A DNA stretch of 42,066 nt from a virus (taxonomy: Duplodnaviria > Heunggongvirae > Uroviricota > Caudoviricetes): IMG/VR virus record IMGVR_UViG_2541047679_000006, positions 1-42,066 of that record; one strand, 5' to 3'. The first letter of the stretch is position 1. Every line of letters starts with the position of its first letter. The notes beneath the pieces were generated by a model, which had not been told where the DNA came from, ran no database searches, and saw only the letters and a program-made list of their open reading frames with translations. The translations under genes and the position numbers were made by a program. Of the stretch, positions 33,076-39,756 are shown one piece after another.

Positions 33076-34985
33076 TGGCCTATAGTCGTGAACAGTTGAT
33101 GACAGCATTAAGGAACGCTGATGCGGCAGGCGATACAGAAGGAGCGCGTCGCATTGCTCAGATTCTGTCCTCCAGTAATCAACCAACTCAAAACCAAAAG
33201 CAGCCTGTAGAACAGCAAGATGGATTTATGTCTGACCTCGGCGAAGCAGTAAAAGAAACTGGTCGCGGACTGGTGCAGGCTGGTGTAAATGTGGCAAATA
33301 TACCAGCATCAGTTGCCGATGCTGTAACAAGCGCGGCGGCATGGGCTGGCGGCAAACTCGGTATTGGTGATGGAACATATCAACCAGCGCCACGAGTAAC
33401 AACTCAGGGATTAGAGCAGGCGTTTGGACTTCAGCAAGGTGCTCTGACTCCACAAACGACAGAAGGTAGGGTGTTTGCGGAGGCATTGCCTTACCTGGCT
33501 ACTGTTGGCGTTGGCGGCGCTTCAACTCAGGCGCCAACACTTGCTGGTCGAATTACTCAAGGCGCAGCCCGTCTTCTGGCAGAAAACGCAGTCGGATCAC
33601 TCGCCGCAAACAGTGAGAAAAATGATGCGGGAAAACTGGCAACAGATATAGGTGTTGGCATGCTAACAGGTGGTGCTGTTAATACTGTTGCAAAAGGACT
33701 TGAGCGTGGAATAACTGCCTTTAAAGGTGATATTGCACCAGAAGTGGCGAAGAAAATTGCCATATCAGAATCGATGGGCGTGACACCAATGACATCTGAT
33801 GTTATCCCGCCGAAAAATGCTTTCACTCGCGGCCTTACTCAGGATGCCGAGGGGGCTTTGCTCGGGACAGGCTCAAAGCGAGCTGAGCAGTATGCAAAGA
33901 GAAGTCAGCTAGTTAAAAAACAGCTTGAGAAATATGGTGAATATAGTCCATCAGTTGTTGTTGATGATCTGTATGGTTCTCTGAAGTCAAGGAAGGATTC
34001 GGCCGGAAGCGTTATTGAAGACATTACAACCAAAATGGGAGACACACCTGTTGACACATCAAAATCTATTAAGGTTATCGACAACGTACTTACCAGAGCT
34101 AACAGGCTTGGGAAAGTGGCAAATAAGGATTTGATTCGCGGGTTATCCGATTTGCGAGAAGAACTTGCTAAACCAGATATAGATTTTGGTCTATTGAGAG
34201 AGTTGCGGTCAGCCTTGAGGGAAAGTATTCAGGGAGATGCCATGGTTTTTCCTAATAGCGCGAAAGCCGCAACTGATGCCGTGGAGAGGGCAATGGGGGC
34301 AGATTTGAGGAATAACGCAGCGCGGTATTTGGGGGCTGGAGAGGCCGCCAGATACGTCAAAGCAAACTCTGACTACTCCAACGTCTTCAATAAAGTTCTC
34401 AATAAAAGGATTGCGAATAATCTCAACAAAGCTAAAAAAGAGTTTACTCCAGAGCTAATAAACAGCGTTGTATTCAGCAGAAAACCATCAGATATTAAGA
34501 GGATATGGCCTGCTCTTAGTGAAGATGGAAAGAACGCTATGCGTGCTGCTTATATCAGCAAGATTGCAGAAAAAGCAGGAGACTCACCAACAAAATTTCT
34601 TACCGAGTTAAATAAGTTGAAGTCGCAATCTGACGGTCAGATCTATAACACGATATTCAGTGGGAGACACATGAAAGAGCTTGATGCTCTTCATGAAGTT
34701 CTACAGCAAACAGCAAGGTCGGACGCCGCAAATGTAGTAACACAGACAGGACAATCGCAAGCTAACAGGATTAGAACGATTGGCGCAACTGCGACTCTTG
34801 GGGCAACACTGGCGCTTGAAGCTGGTTTCGGTGCAATCATGCGCTTGTACGAGTCCAAAGCAGCAAGGAATGCGCTCTTACGTCTGGCAAACACTAAAGC
34901 TGGAACGCCAGCCTATGAAAGAGCGTTAAGTAACGCTGCAAATGCCATCAGGCCGCTGCTTGCCACTGAGGCAACACAGCAGTAA
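33075..34985 (+). CDS. Ejection protein (P22 gp16-like)
   Basis: 636-aa ORF in the gp16 position; ATG overlaps the upstream stop. Confidence 0.6.
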   Translation: MAYSREQLMTALRNADAAGDTEGARRIAQILSSSNQPTQNQKQPVEQQDGFMSDLGEAVKETGRGLVQAGVNVANIPASVADAVTSAAAWAGGKLGIGDGTYQPAPRVTTQGLEQAFGLQQGALTPQTTEGRVFAEALPYLATVGVGGASTQAPTLAGRITQGAARLLAENAVGSLAANSEKNDAGKLATDIGVGMLTGGAVNTVAKGLERGITAFKGDIAPEVAKKIAISESMGVTPMTSDVIPPKNAFTRGLTQDAEGALLGTGSKRAEQYAKRSQLVKKQLEKYGEYSPSVVVDDLYGSLKSRKDSAGSVIEDITTKMGDTPVDTSKSIKVIDNVLTRANRLGKVANKDLIRGLSDLREELAKPDIDFGLLRELRSALRESIQGDAMVFPNSAKAATDAVERAMGADLRNNAARYLGAGEAARYVKANSDYSNVFNKVLNKRIANNLNKAKKEFTPELINSVVFSRKPSDIKRIWPALSEDGKNAMRAAYISKIAEKAGDSPTKFLTELNKLKSQSDGQIYNTIFSGRHMKELDALHEVLQQTARSDAANVVTQTGQSQANRIRTIGATATLGATLALEAGFGAIMRLYESKAARNALLRLANTKAGTPAYERALSNAANAIRPLLATEATQQ

Positions 34986-35009
34986 CGTATGGGAAATTGG
35001 ATTCAATCG

Positions 35010-35399
35010 CTAACATTTTCTTTTTACTTTTCCAACAAAAGCTTTGGTTGAATCCATATTTCCATAACCGGAAATGGTTTTTGACATTAAAACTGTTCCA
35101 GTAGGATGTATTACCCATGAGTCGATAACGCGTTGAGTTTCGCCATTCGCGCCGATTCCTATGATGGAGTTTTTAGACAATGCTTTGTAAGCCATGCCGC
35201 CCGCATCTGTCCCAGAATATGTGATGCTGGCATCTTCACCGTTTGTCTTAATGATGAATGTTCCACTAAAACCATCTTCTTCCGGATGGAAATTATTTCG
35301 TTCTGAATAGCTTATTCCGCGCATATCTCCAACGACCCAGCACTCTGCTGTAGCCCCAAAAGATATGAATAAGAACATAGCAGTAAGAAATTGCTTCAC
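35010..35399 (-). CDS. Hypothetical secreted/periplasmic protein (129 aa, N-terminal signal peptide), moron candidate in the immI-equivalent region
   Basis: N-terminus MKQFLTAMFLFISFGATA-E is a typical Sec signal; convergent with the ejection genes; AT-rich. Confidence 0.55.
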   Translation of the reverse strand: MKQFLTAMFLFISFGATAECWVVGDMRGISYSERNNFHPEEDGFSGTFIIKTNGEDASITYSGTDAGGMAYKALSKNSIIGIGANGETQRVIDSWVIHPTGTVLMSKTISGYGNMDSTKAFVGKVKRKC

Positions 35400-35539
35400 A
35401 CCAACCTCCTTAGTTTTGAGCAGGATACCAGATGATACTGTATTGGTGGAGTGGTGTGTGAAAACGTGTCAACGACAAGCCATCCACAACTTGGACGAAT
35501 GATTTAGCAAAAAGTGCTATTTTTGGTGTTTAGTGTCAT

Positions 35540-35562
35540 AGAAAAGTGAATAGCTCACTTTT
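35540..35562. promoter_or_regulatory. Perfect palindrome GAAAAGTGA-ATAGC-TCACTTTTC in the divergent intergenic region (candidate operator)
   Basis: 9-bp perfect inverted repeats with 5-bp spacer read directly; lies between the divergently oriented secreted-protein gene and the GepA-like gene. Confidence 0.35.
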
Positions 35563-35773
35563 CAACATTGCATGAAACTTGCAGGAAATGTGACATTACC
35601 TTATAGGTAACTTCGGCGAAAATGCAGTAAATGTGAAACGTAATGATTTAAACGTGTCGAGAAAGTGGTTGTAAGTTAGCCTCTGAAGGATTGATGACAG
35701 CTTTGTTATGGTATTAAATGCAACTTGACACAGTTGTATACATAGCTGCGGCTATCAAGATGGAGGTATGTTT

Positions 35774-36217
35774 ATGCTCACTTGTTTTGATGTCGCCGAC
35801 TACTTCTTGGCGCATTGCGATGAAGAAAGTGGCGACATTATCTCTAACCTAAAAATTCAGAAGTTGACGTATTATGCCCAAGGGTTTTCTCTGGTTCTTC
35901 TGGGTAAGCCGCTATTTAATGAGAAAATTGAAGCCTGGATGCATGGGCCAGTAGTTCCTGAATTGTATCGTAAATATAGGGACTGTGGTAACGGAGCTTT
36001 ACCTGCGCCAGAAAACTTTGACGCTAAAAAATTCAGTGAAGATGAAATTGAATTGCTGGATGAGGTGTATAAAGTTTATGGTCAGTTTTCTGCCTGGAAA
36101 CTGCGCAATATGACTCACGAAGAGCAGCCATGGAAAGATGCTTACATTGAGGGTGCGGTTAGCCAAGAAATCACACTTGATTCTATGAAAGGTTTTTTCA
36201 AAACGTTAATTAACTGA
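35774..36217 (+). CDS. GepA/Panacea-like (DUF4065-like) phage-associated protein, candidate antitoxin-type component
   Basis: Translation (…DVADYFLAHCDEESGDIISNLKIQKLTYYAQGFSLVLLGKPLF…WMHGPVVPELY…) fits my recollection of the GepA/Panacea family; GGAGG RBS 6 nt before the ATG at 35774. Confidence 0.65.
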   Translation: MLTCFDVADYFLAHCDEESGDIISNLKIQKLTYYAQGFSLVLLGKPLFNEKIEAWMHGPVVPELYRKYRDCGNGALPAPENFDAKKFSEDEIELLDEVYKVYGQFSAWKLRNMTHEEQPWKDAYIEGAVSQEITLDSMKGFFKTLIN

Positions 36218-36222
36218 CGTGT

Positions 36223-36645
36223 ATGTCTAGAGTTAAGGGAAGAATAAAACAGAGGGATAAAGAGAGCTCTGCTACTGTTGGCCTCTCTATCCATCACGAA
36301 TCTCATGATGTAGAAAAAAGTCCGCCTGTATTTTCTCTTAGATACCTACAAAAGGGGTATTGCCTGGATTGCTGCCAAAAGCATGAAAAGGCAGCATTTG
36401 CAGATAGGCTGTTCAGGTTAAGTCAGATGTCATGGGATGAGATACGAAAATCTGATAAACACGGGCTTGGGACGGAAAAAATTGCCAGAAACGCGATAAA
36501 GGCTCCGATTCCTAAGCATGTTACTCAAGATGTGGATTTCATTGCGTTCAGATTTTGCTCTAAGGCACCTATGGTTGGTTATAAGATAGGAGCCACTTTT
36601 TATGTCTTATGGCTCGACAGGGAGTTCAAGCTATACAAGCACTAA
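36223..36645 (+). CDS. Hypothetical protein (140 aa) tightly linked downstream of the GepA-like gene, candidate partner/toxin
   Basis: ATG 5 nt after the upstream stop with no SD of its own, suggesting translational coupling; basic N-terminus and CxxCC motif; unrecognised. Confidence 0.5.
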   Translation: MSRVKGRIKQRDKESSATVGLSIHHESHDVEKSPPVFSLRYLQKGYCLDCCQKHEKAAFADRLFRLSQMSWDEIRKSDKHGLGTEKIARNAIKAPIPKHVTQDVDFIAFRFCSKAPMVGYKIGATFYVLWLDREFKLYKH

Positions 36646-36672
36646 TAAAACCCACCGTCAGGTGGGTTTTTT
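36645..36672. terminator. Bidirectional intrinsic terminator between the 140-aa gene and mnt (AAACCCACC-GTCA-GGTGGGTTT flanked by A/T runs)
   Basis: 9-bp perfect stem with T-run on the plus strand and A-run on the other side; overlaps the mnt stop. Confidence 0.6.
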
Positions 36673-36918
36673 GTACAAATCCTTCAGCGTATCAAACACC
36701 ATCTTCTTAACAAGATCTGACTGCTCATCAGCGAGTCGTTCTGCATCGTCACGATACCCGCTTACAGGTGATGGTTTGGAGAGTGATTCTTCCATCGTAG
36801 CCACAATTTCGGAATTGATAGACCTGTTATTCATTTTTGCACGCTGCTTAATCTTAGCGTGCAACTCGTGCGTAAGCCTCAAGTGGAACTGCGCCTCATC
36901 GTATTTGCTGTACATCAT
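36658..36918 (-). CDS. mnt: Mnt-like repressor (P22 immI ribbon-helix-helix family), without arc or ant
   Basis: C-terminal 86 aa (…AKMNNRSINSEIVATMEESLSKPSPVSGYRDDAERLADEQSDLVKKMVFDTLKDLYKKPT) closely match P22 Mnt as I recall it; ATG at 36918 with GGTGAGG RBS; the longer track ORF is an upstream read-through. Confidence 0.8.
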   Translation of the reverse strand: MMYSKYDEAQFHLRLTHELHAKIKQRAKMNNRSINSEIVATMEESLSKPSPVSGYRDDAERLADEQSDLVKKMVFDTLKDLYKKPT

Positions 36919-37050
36919 CAATGCCTCACCAAATGGGTGGAATGGCATCGTAAAACCTACTGTACAAATCAACAATCGTACCATTTCGGTATGTAACAAA
37001 TTCCAACCGTAGCCATGCTTCGGTGATTCCTTGTATCTGGAGCAAATTAA

Positions 37051-39756
37051 ATGACAGACATTACAGCCAATGTTGTAGTGAGTATGCCTTCGCAACTCTT
37101 CACTATGGCGCGTTCTTTTAAAGCCGTAGCCAATGGCAAAATTTATATCGGTAAAATTGACACTGACCCGGTAAATCCTGAAAACCAGATTCAGGTTTAT
37201 GTAGAGAACGAAGACGGTTCTCACATTCCTGTTTCGCAACCAATAATCATTAACGCTGCTGGATATCCGGTATATAACGGACAGATTGCCAAATTCGTAA
37301 CCGTGCAAGGCCATTCTATGGCTGTTTACGATGCTTATGGCACTCAGCAGTTTTATTTTCCAAATGTATTAAAATACGATCCAGATCAGTTTGGCCCAGA
37401 CTTCAAAGAGCAGTTATCTCAATCAGGAGCATACATTAATGATGATTCAAAAGGTGATGCATTAATTGGGGTAAGGCAGCCATTTACCGGGGCTGTAACT
37501 ATAACTCAGCATGAAAACAATGCTCTTTTCTTAAATGTAAAACAATTCGGAGCAATTGGGGATGGGAAATATCATCCATTATCTGAGAGGTTTTCTTCAA
37601 TTTCTGAAGCAAAATCCTTATATCCTTTTGTTGACTCATTATCTCAGTCAATAGACTGGGCCGCGTGGCAAGCTGCCCTTAACACAGGAAAGGTTATTTA
37701 TGGTACTGATAATGCGTATGTAATAACGGATACGTTAACACCTGTTTCTGGTGGTGGGATAATTGGTCTTGGTGTGGGCAAATGGGTCTCCGGATATACT
37801 GCAACATTTGCTCCTGATATTACCACAGGGACCACATTCCTGATGTACGGGGTAGGAAATAAAAAATATACTGTAGATTGTGTTTCTAATATGGATGTTA
37901 GTGGTGGTGTGGTTTCTAATCCATCTTCCGAAGACCCGTATACAACAACAGCACCTGCGTCATCATATGATTTATTGGATTTTACTAACGGTGATGCTAA
38001 TGGGACTACAAGAGCCACGCTTAAACCATTCTCTGCCGCAATATTGATGCCTGAGACAGGATGTGTTCGCCTTGAGAACTTTCGTGTTGTTCCATATTTC
38101 AATGGGCTGGATGGTTATAAAGACATTGCAAATACCGGTCTTGGCGATGAGTGGGATGTAGGTATTTGGTCACGTGCGTCTTTTGGCAATGAATACCGCA
38201 ATTTGCAGGTGGTTGGATACTGGCGCAAGACGGCACTTTTAAAAACGAACATTCCTGTATCTGGCACGCTGGCTGCTCAGGGCGAGGATGAAAACTATTA
38301 TCACTGTAGATTCCAGGGATTCAAGGGTGTTTCGATCCGCGCCAATGATGTATTCCGAATTACAGCGGTAACGTCCAGCACTATCGAAATCCCATGGTCA
38401 GCAAGCCACACCTTCGAAACGTCCGGAGTTTTAAGATCTGGAGGCAGGAATTTCACTTATTCAGGATTATCCGTATCCGGTGATAAGTTAGTATTTACTG
38501 GAGTGTCTAACGCTTCTGAGGCAACAGTAGGTTCTACTATACGGCGAAATGACATAGATAACTTTGGTATGGCGGGAACGCAATTTTTCGATTGCTACAT
38601 TACCAGCCTGTATCACCACACACATCTGCTTGCCACATCGCAATACCTGTCTCAACCATTCAGCCGACCATCAGAGTGTATGGAGGTTTCAGGGGAACCA
38701 GTTCGCGGTGTACAGGTACATGCAGGAACCATTCAGGGATGGGATGATGTTCTTATTCATCTGCATGACTGTGGAAATATGAACTTTTACAGTACATATT
38801 TCGAAAGCCAGCAAGCATATGTAACTATAAATGGTGGTAATGCTATTGGTTATGGAGCACGTATGATAGCTTCCCGGCAATCAACAAGCTCATTACCATA
38901 TGCAGCAGGGAATACACGAGTGCTTAGAATGGTCGGGTGCTCTGAAGGCAATGGCGTTGACTGGGGTCCTGTATTTAACAACTATACAGGAGGAAGATAT
39001 AATTCTGGAGACGGTGTATTTAACCCCCGCGATGCATTTATAGACCATAAATCTCTTCCTGAGCAGTCAGGAGGTGAGTCAAGACTCGTATCACAAAAAG
39101 GAAATGCCAGAGTAGTATGTGGTGTTGGTAAAACTGTACTGCTTGGACCAACGTCAGGAGATTGTAATTTACAGAGTAATACCGGAAGTTTAAATATTAG
39201 AAGTGGGATAAGAGTAAGAGTCGGTCACGCTGATGGAACAGACTGGTGGTTGGCAGATGCTAATAAAATAGCTCCTGTTGATGATAATGTTAAAGCTATT
39301 GGACAGCCATCAAACAGATGCTCTGTTATCTATGCAGGAACCGGGTCAATCAATACATCAGATGAAACTCTTAAAACAAGATATGATATTCTTAATGCAG
39401 AGCGTGATGCCGCTATTGAAATAAAGTCAGTCATCTATAAATTTAAATTTAATGACTCAATTAATCACAAAGGAATTGAGTCGTCCAGGTATCATTTTGG
39501 CGTTGGCGCTCAAACCGTAGGGGATATTCTTAGAAAGCATGGTTTAAATCCTGAGCAATATGCTTTTTGGTGTTACGATGAATGGCCTGACGTATGGGAT
39601 GAAGAGGTGATAACTGAAGAGAGCACAGATCCTGATACAGGTGAGAAAATTTATTCTCAATATAAAACAGGAGATATGATTCTTGTAAAAAAAGCAGGAG
39701 GACGCTACGGAATTCGTTATGACGAATTGGCTATGTTTATATTAATGGCAATGTAG
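37051..39756 (+). CDS. Tailspike: P22-type N-terminal head-binding domain, divergent central receptor-binding domain, C-terminal S74-like intramolecular chaperone domain
   Basis: N-terminus [47 protein letters not shown]… matches the P22 gp9 head-binding domain; remainder unlike P22; C-terminus has an S-D-x-x-L-K motif (…[15 protein letters not shown]…). Confidence 0.85.

Follow-up and report, generated by a model that had tools for sequence, protein, structure and literature searches.

A Panacea gene and its abutting partner, a predicted RelE-fold protein, form a small cassette in the cargo slot of a P22-like prophage

Results

Two abutting genes of a previously catalogued pair type

The stretch of DNA analyzed here (the window) is the 42,066-nucleotide IMG/VR virus record IMGVR_UViG_2541047679_000006, whose content as a whole is that of a P22-like (Lederbergvirus-type) prophage with injection genes, mnt and a tailspike gene. 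At 35774-36645, two genes that we call panA and panT abut on the + strand. Our central finding, in which we have high confidence, is that they encode a Panacea protein and a RelE-fold protein resembling the PB-BECR1 domain, and that these form an obligate abutting pair on a small cassette, which occupies a cargo slot of the prophage. The genes had been singled out in an earlier reading of the letters alone (the original prediction) as a candidate toxin-antitoxin (TA) or abortive-infection module.

35774..36217, + strand: panA, a stand-alone Panacea protein of 147 amino acids (149 if translation began at ATG 35768); Pfam PF13274, PHROG 1281
35762..35766, + strand: Shine-Dalgarno sequence GGAGG of panA, 7 nt before ATG 35774 and conserved in Salmonella phage vB_SemP_Emek
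36223..36645, + strand: panT, the 140-amino-acid partner of the cluster T1 type, with a disordered basic N-terminal tail (residues 1 to ~32) and a predicted RelE-like (BECR) core (residues ~33-140)

Panacea gene neighborhoods were surveyed by Kurata et al. 2022 (PNAS, PMC8832971), who defined 88 clusters of toxins. According to their Dataset S1, cluster T1 includes the PanA (YP_006560565.1) and PanT (YP_006560566.1) of Salmonella phage vB_SemP_Emek (hereafter Emek), and it also holds a pair from Escherichia coli MOD1, cyanobacterial pairs (Scytonema, Cylindrospermum) and many others; the mode of action predicted for it is 'mRNase' (PMC8832971, Table S1). The window PanT is 52% identical to its Emek counterpart (E 2e-48) and the window PanA is 70% identical, and by this similarity the window pair is a PanA-PanT pair of cluster T1, a pair type that was already catalogued. 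The second gene is therefore not the undescribed toxin that the original prediction had thought possible, since its family is large and the pair type was listed in 2022. As in the Emek pair, a stand-alone Panacea gene comes first and a partner of ~140 amino acids overlaps or abuts it.

The product of panA matches the Pfam family SocA_Panacea (PF13274, formerly DUF4065) over the whole profile (positions 1-113 of 113) with an E-value of 2.2e-24 and 87 bits, well over the gathering score of 25.7, and it matches PHROG 1281 with an E-value of 1.5e-59. An identical RefSeq protein, WP_001331791.1, is named 'Panacea domain-containing protein'. The likeness to Panacea noticed in the original prediction is thus borne out. 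No DNA-binding domain is found by Pfam, and the corresponding entry in Dataset S1 of Kurata et al. reads 'noNTD'; no PADLOC model matches the protein. Orthology to SocA was considered and rejected, as the protein reaches 61.8 bits with the NCBIfam equivalog NF047745, whose cut-off is 190. The true start is probably ATG 35774, as had been proposed, because the GGAGG sits 7 nt upstream of it, because the first ATG (35768) reads GTG in Emek, because the annotation pipeline PGAP begins the Emek-type gene at the second ATG, and because distant homologues open with MLxC.DV.

panT is a real and conserved gene

The TGA stop codon of panA (36215-36217) is separated by the 5-nt spacer CGTGT from the ATG of panT at 36223, which is the sole possible start because a TAA at 36211-36213 closes the frame. 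There is no GGAG-like core in the 20 nt before this ATG, and the spacing and the missing Shine-Dalgarno sequence are hence as first described. The lack of such a signal, together with the fact that PGAP leaves the second open reading frame unannotated in E. coli DLL7555, UMNK88 and other genomes, could be taken to mean that it is a chance reading frame behind a solitary Panacea gene, as the RefSeq annotation implies. However, the conservation data rule this out, and we give the idea practically no credence. A protein search with PanT yields 259 homologues, nearly all of ~130-146 amino acids among the matches listed, and identities of 45-65% are retained even between distant taxa. Their sources include enterobacteria, Pseudomonas, many cyanobacteria, deltaproteobacterial metagenome-assembled genomes (MAGs) and a MAG of Methanosarcinaceae or anaerobic methanotrophic archaea (ANME). 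When a PanT profile was compared with 1.84 billion representative sequences, it matched 1478 clusters (at 50% identity) with E <= 1e-3, including 194 with E <= 1e-30. An alignment of 83 family members has a mean column identity of 57% and 13 invariant columns, the window protein matches PHROG 8366 with an E-value of 1e-75, and its fold is predicted with confidence. Moreover, nonsynonymous divergence from the Emek allele (pN 0.34) is well under synonymous divergence (pS 0.83, which is saturated), and that allele is itself annotated by PGAP.

The annotation of this gene is uneven. RefSeq omits the window-type panT in the E. coli DLL7555 and UMNK88 genomes that we inspected (loci L001, 4824-5246, and L002, 3324-3746), and in most other carriers only the Panacea gene is annotated under the match. 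In contrast to the window type, the Emek-type gene appears in PGAP annotation as a hypothetical protein of 139 amino acids, WP_032219545.1. The cluster of sequences at 90% identity to the window PanT draws on Logan-assembly sources only.

Two finer features of the protein had been pointed out in the original prediction. The N-terminus is indeed basic, with 21% lysine plus arginine and a net charge of +2 over 33 residues, and it is disordered in the AlphaFold2 model. A CxxCC motif is likewise present in the window copy (C47, C50 and C51, in the context YCLDCC), but it is not a family trait: C51 occurs in 83 of 83 members, C47 in 54 and C50 in 17. A metal-binding role for the motif was accordingly rejected, as C51 is the only one of the three that is conserved.

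panT is always found behind panA

Five diverse PanT homologues that we examined all have a Panacea gene of 146-149 amino acids directly upstream, with an overlap of 8-17 nt. A survey of 80 loci in species-representative genomes, three of which were left out because a contig end lay within 360 nt, extends this observation: a Panacea reading frame immediately precedes panT, on the same strand, in 77 of the 77 evaluable loci, whose sources are cyanobacteria, proteobacteria, acidobacteria and an archaeal MAG. The pairing is thus obligate. A start codon for panT could be assigned by a simple rule in 32 loci, and in 24 of these the gene overlaps panA, in five it begins within 10 nt, and only one has a core resembling a Shine-Dalgarno sequence. 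Tight juxtaposition without a ribosome-binding site is hence a trait of the PanT family. These arrangements suggest that panT is probably translationally coupled to panA, and they agree with the coupled, TA-like pair architecture that had been proposed from the window by itself.

In four metagenomic or MAG contigs (L007-L010), the pair lies beside a gene with a Bro-N domain and small hypothetical genes, with a helicase gene farther off. This context resembles a mobile element or phage, and the pair may be mobile-element cargo outside the enterobacteria too.

The PanT core is related to the effector domain of NsnC

In the structural model, the core of PanT is predicted to have the endoribonuclease fold shared by RelE, HigB, YoeB and YafQ (Barnase/EndoU/Colicin/RelE, or BECR). 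One profile match is to the PADLOC model for NsnC (PDLC03891), in which residues 40-137 of PanT align with positions 185-280 of 284 (E 1.8e-7). The same C-terminal part of NsnC is matched by 83 of 83 members of the PanT family, with a best E-value of 1.4e-11. This part has been described as PB-BECR1, a ribonuclease (RNase) domain of the BECR fold that has an H-R-H triad and matches YafQ best in structure; it has been proposed to act as effector in the Menshen anti-phage system (PMC12065111). Judged from these profile matches, which span the whole domain (positions 185-280), PanT and the PB-BECR1 effector domain of NsnC are homologues. A second and weaker match, to the NCBIfam model MAG6450 (NF046006), reaches 25.1 bits in the window protein, below the cut-off of 40, and recurs below the cut-off in 75 of the 83 family members; by its score, this relationship is distant and does not amount to membership. 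With these matches and that to PHROG 8366, the earlier statement that the partner matches nothing recognizable does not stand.

Unlike NsnC, PanT is free-standing and lacks the N-terminal inactive-PIN domain. The neighbors of the pair also differ from those of Menshen genes, being a Panacea gene, a gene similar to Sf6 gene 38, and mnt rather than genes like NsnA or NsnB. Membership in Menshen was therefore rejected, since there is neither the inactive-PIN domain of NsnC nor an adjacent gene resembling NsnA (ParB-DUF262) or NsnB (ABC ATPase). PanT would be under the control of PanA and not of an ABC ATPase.

The conserved residues of the PanT family are R/K79, H80, E85, R89, R110, Y120, R/K121, D132, R133, Y138 and H140, and all of them are present in the window copy. 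H80 (79 of 83 members), R110 (83 of 83) and H140 (82 of 83) are candidate catalytic residues, and their conservation is compatible with the H-R-H triad of PB-BECR1. A larger set comprising H80, E85, R110, Y120, D132, R133, Y138 and H140 is suggestive of the catalytic residues of RelE-type enzymes. As in the RelE, HigB, YoeB and YafQ toxins, the basic, histidine and tyrosine residues conserved in PanT are gathered on the sheet and at the very C-terminal end of the protein (Y138, H140). This is also where YoeB H83/Y84, RelE R81/Y87 and YafQ H87 lie, and the Y-x-H at the end of PanT recalls the catalytic histidine and tyrosine at the C-termini of YoeB and YafQ. PanT nevertheless differs from RelE-type toxins in three respects: it has no similarity to them at the sequence level, it carries ~45 extra N-terminal residues (the disordered basic tail, an added strand and the invariant C51), and its partner is a Panacea protein and not RelB, HigA, YefM or DinJ.

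The pair is carried by a small cassette in the sieA slot

The two genes belong to a unit of 1.28 kb, extending from 35397 to ~36674, that comprises a leader, panA and panT. Its edges, at 35390-35397 and at ~36674, are the limits of homology in comparisons with relatives that have different flanks. For the 1.3-kb segment 35400-36700, phages EC.P3 and E212 as well as prophages of E. coli show 99-100% identity. Two further features complete the cassette.

35397..35767, + strand: non-coding leader of 368 bp, with its left homology boundary at 35390-35397, conserved in both cassette alleles
36647..36670, bidirectional: intrinsic terminator hairpin AAAACCCACC-GTCA-GGTGGGTTTT, with an RNA folding energy of -17.8 kcal/mol (z -4.5 versus shuffled sequences)

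The cassette lies between a DNA-injection gene and mnt. In P22 itself, the interval between gene 16 and mnt holds the superinfection exclusion gene sieA and orf59a, and this is the same slot. The leader, which presumably holds the promoter and 5' untranslated region of panAT, is also upstream of a divergent gene similar to Sf6 gene 38. No convincing open reading frame was found in it, and an Rfam search of 34900-37200 gave terminator-like matches below the threshold only and no family in the leader. The hairpin at the other end terminates panAT and reaches into the 3' end of mnt, a convergent gene (36658-36909, - strand). Its sequence is common to the 3' end of P22 mnt, and the equivalent site of Emek is annotated as a terminator; the leader, the terminator and the P22-like locus, as well as the 'mRNase' prediction, are shared with the Emek pair.

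Of 5426 complete E. coli genomes, 82 have the leader sequence at a coverage of at least 80%, a number equal to the sum of 34 carriers of the window-type panAT and 48 carriers of the Emek type, and the cassette is thus carried by ~1.5% of the genomes. The leader is ~94-96% identical between the two alleles despite the saturation of synonymous sites in the coding parts. The conserved stretches, which besides the leader include the opening ~40 nt of panA, the closing ~25 nt of panT and the hairpin, show 94-100% identity. Between these near-identical flanks, panA and panT differ with pS of 0.79 and 0.83 and pN of 0.20 and 0.34, respectively. The window cassette is therefore an anciently diverged allele relative to that of Emek, and because the flanks are near-identical while synonymous sites in the coding parts are saturated, the comparison identifies two old alleles that have been exchanged between conserved flanks.

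Among 50,697 phage records, PanT homologues are present in 12: two of the window type, three of the Emek type (two of which are the same phage) and seven from Pseudomonas phages, which are the only phage carriers beyond the P22-like group. The latter are temperate phages of Pseudomonas aeruginosa (MK510965-MK510993; vB_Pae_CF60a, CF67a, BR201a and others) whose PanT homologue has 41% identity.

Several neighboring features deserve a brief description. The gene at 35010-35399 (- strand) encodes a 129-amino-acid protein with a hydrophobic N-terminus resembling a signal peptide; it belongs to PHROG 2651, its equivalent in the Emek record is described as similar to Sf6 gene 38, and it has no match in Pfam, NCBIfam or PADLOC. 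It has the position and orientation of sieA in P22 and may be another exclusion or moron gene. On the other side, the immI region is truncated: the tailspike gene (37051) comes straight after mnt (36658-36909, - strand, 83 amino acids), and both arc and ant are missing. In E. coli DLL7555, whose prophage is near-identical, arc and a frameshifted ant occupy this place, and window positions 36778-36997 have no homology to that prophage. The 218-amino-acid reading frame listed at 36658-37314 is mnt over-extended upstream.

Discussion

A PanA-restrained RNase is the favored explanation

A TA-like interpretation is the standard one for Panacea pairs, and with respect to the original prediction the feature is real, with the class of the first gene and the TA-like pairing upheld, whereas the unknown partner and the CxxCC as a conserved motif were not. 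The explanation that we favor overall, with moderate confidence, is that panAT encodes a RelE-like RNase restrained by PanA that probably serves in superinfection defense or prophage addiction. According to this proposal, PanA and PanT would be expressed from one transcript, and the translation of panT would be coupled to the termination of panA translation. If coupling operates as proposed, then PanT would never be made without PanA. PanA would bind PanT directly and keep it inactive, as is suggested by the stable complexes formed by five other PanAT pairs (PMC8832971). A cue acting through PanA, most plausibly infection by another phage, or the loss of PanA, would free PanT. The free protein would then cut RNA, its likeliest target being ribosome-associated mRNA in the manner of RelE-type enzymes, and the resulting halt in translation would either abort the infection or penalize the loss of the prophage. 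Taken separately, the proposition that PanT is an RNase and that PanA restrains it seems to us about evenly balanced, and an anti-phage role for the pair is a tentative suggestion.

Various observations weigh against this explanation. Some concern the fold: the window PanT has no Pfam match at E <= 1, and none of the 83 family members matches RelE, ParE, YoeB, YafQ or HigB at E <= 0.1, the Pfam matches of these members being scattered and due to chance. Sequence searches of the PDB with PanT alone and with the family profile found nothing at E <= 10, and a Foldseek search with the model gave nothing significant in the PDB or BFVD, with RelE-type chains among the PDB matches only at E ~1. An hhalign comparison of the PanT profile with E. 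coli YoeB, RelE and YafQ gave probabilities below 2% and no mapping of catalytic residues. A scan for sigma-70 promoters found no consensus promoter on the + strand of the leader, although the same run also overlooked the terminator at 36647-36670 that folding confirmed. Finally, the published toxicity record of cluster T1 is mixed. The Emek PanT (YP_006560566.1) and the E. coli MOD1 protein (WP_077635758.1) were scored 'not toxic' when expressed in E. coli from pBAD33 behind a strong Shine-Dalgarno signal, and neutralization assays of these pairs were consequently skipped (PMC8832971, Table S1). The Clostridium cadaveris PanT of cluster T1 proved toxic, but its own PanA did not neutralize it (PMC8832971).

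The form of the Emek protein that was assayed bears on how this record is read. The expressed protein was the GenBank form of 161 amino acids, whose TTG start lies inside panA, 22 codons before the conserved ATG, and adds LVVLKLVLRRWQSTLQLGLTNE. These 22 additional residues are largely hydrophobic and probably spurious, and PGAP calls the identical gene as a protein of 139 amino acids. In our locus set, the Emek orf161 lies at 3257-3742 of L003 and has the accession of the construct scored 'not toxic'. The gene structure suggests that the published result may be inapplicable to the native protein. Moreover, its authors caution that a lack of toxicity in E. coli leaves toxicity in the original host possible (PMC8832971). 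The original prediction had named toxicity of the partner by itself as one of the points that would count, and on this point the two nontoxic relatives weaken the toxin reading while the toxic C. cadaveris protein speaks for it. The toxin reading is thus weakened rather than eliminated, because Emek PanT is only 52% identical to the window protein, because it was assayed in the probably mis-started 161-amino-acid form, and because the C. cadaveris protein is toxic.

Alternatively, the pair might not be a classical TA system at all. PanT could be harmless to the host, acting as an RNase or as an RNA- or ribosome-binding factor directed at a phage substrate, or it could need activation, with PanA being a partner, chaperone or sensor. 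The behavior of the two T1 members from E. coli and the Salmonella phage, which were not toxic when over-expressed in E. coli, speaks for this reading, and as the conserved residues are intact in the Emek protein, an obviously dead active site does not account for its lack of toxicity. Likewise, both partners are ~50-65% identical across an enterobacterial phage, cyanobacteria and an archaeal MAG, an uncommonly high degree of conservation for a TA pair, and Ernits et al. 2023 favor a sensory role for Panacea (PMC10440598). Nevertheless, we consider this alternative, the main rival, less likely than the favored explanation. The doubtful TTG start of the Emek construct, the reliance of the toxicity tests on one expression condition and one host, and the toxicity of the C. 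cadaveris protein all count against it, as does the homology of PanT to PB-BECR1, the proposed killing effector of Menshen.

It is also conceivable that panAT is a classical addiction module which stabilizes the prophage or the cassette by post-segregational killing and has no part in defense. The architecture is TA-like with the antitoxin gene first, and the cassette acts as a selfish mobile unit that is found between different flanks, in many phyla and in ~1.5% of complete E. coli genomes. However, addiction needs a toxicity that was not seen in the tested relatives, PanA lacks the DNA-binding domain for autoregulation that is typical of type II addiction modules, and the cassette sits in what is, in P22-like phages, the slot for superinfection exclusion (sieA). 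We therefore regard addiction by itself as improbable.

The abortive-infection side of the PanA-restrained RNase proposal rests on context, namely the sieA slot and the effector domain shared with Menshen. The slot is known for a superinfection-exclusion gene expressed from the prophage, and panAT resembles SieA and other moron cargo of the gene 16-mnt interval in its location. Unlike SieA, to which it has no homology, the pair would act by intracellular RNA cleavage, whereas SieA acts by exclusion at the membrane. A comparison can also be made with SocA-SocB, the type VI TA system of Caulobacter, whose antitoxin has a Panacea domain. In contrast to that system, PanT is unrelated to SocB, and PanAT is classed as type II (PMC8832971).

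A more specific proposal, which we offer as speculation, is that the T1 pair is a prophage-borne defense switch that depends on a trigger: PanA would detect some component of a phage entering the cell, and only then would it release or activate an otherwise silent RelE-fold RNase. Such a switch would account for the nontoxic over-expressed T1 proteins of E. coli and Salmonella phages. If it exists, then two unrelated controllers would govern the use of PB-BECR1, namely PanA in the T1 pair and the NsnA/NsnB sensor-ATPase in Menshen, and the two ancient alleles between identical flanks would stem from balancing or diversifying selection that different target phages impose.

Novelty and implications

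Our literature search on Panacea, PanAT, MAG6450 and PB-BECR1 found no newer work on the window pair, and the portions of the NetFlax supplements available to us contain none of the relevant accessions. In the accessible part of its text, the Menshen paper (PMC12065111) does not use the word Panacea. Three points therefore appear modestly new: a second cassette allele, which lacks annotation; a connection at the sequence level between PanT of cluster T1 and the PB-BECR1 domain of Menshen, which is suggested by the profile matches and is not drawn in the accessible part of PMC12065111; and the realization that the published test of the Emek protein used a probably mis-started form. The practical gains are small but real, in that RefSeq lacks an annotation of the window-type panT in at least 34 complete E. 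coli genomes and the 'not toxic' result for Emek deserves to be repeated. Apart from this, panAT is an expected kind of prophage cargo that had already been catalogued. If the proposed mechanism holds, then the largest predicted PanT cluster, T1, would be linked to the RNase effector domain of Menshen, and the pair would offer a tractable model in E. coli and P22-like phages for asking whether Panacea is a neutralizer or a sensor and how PanAT pairs are activated (Ernits et al. 2023).

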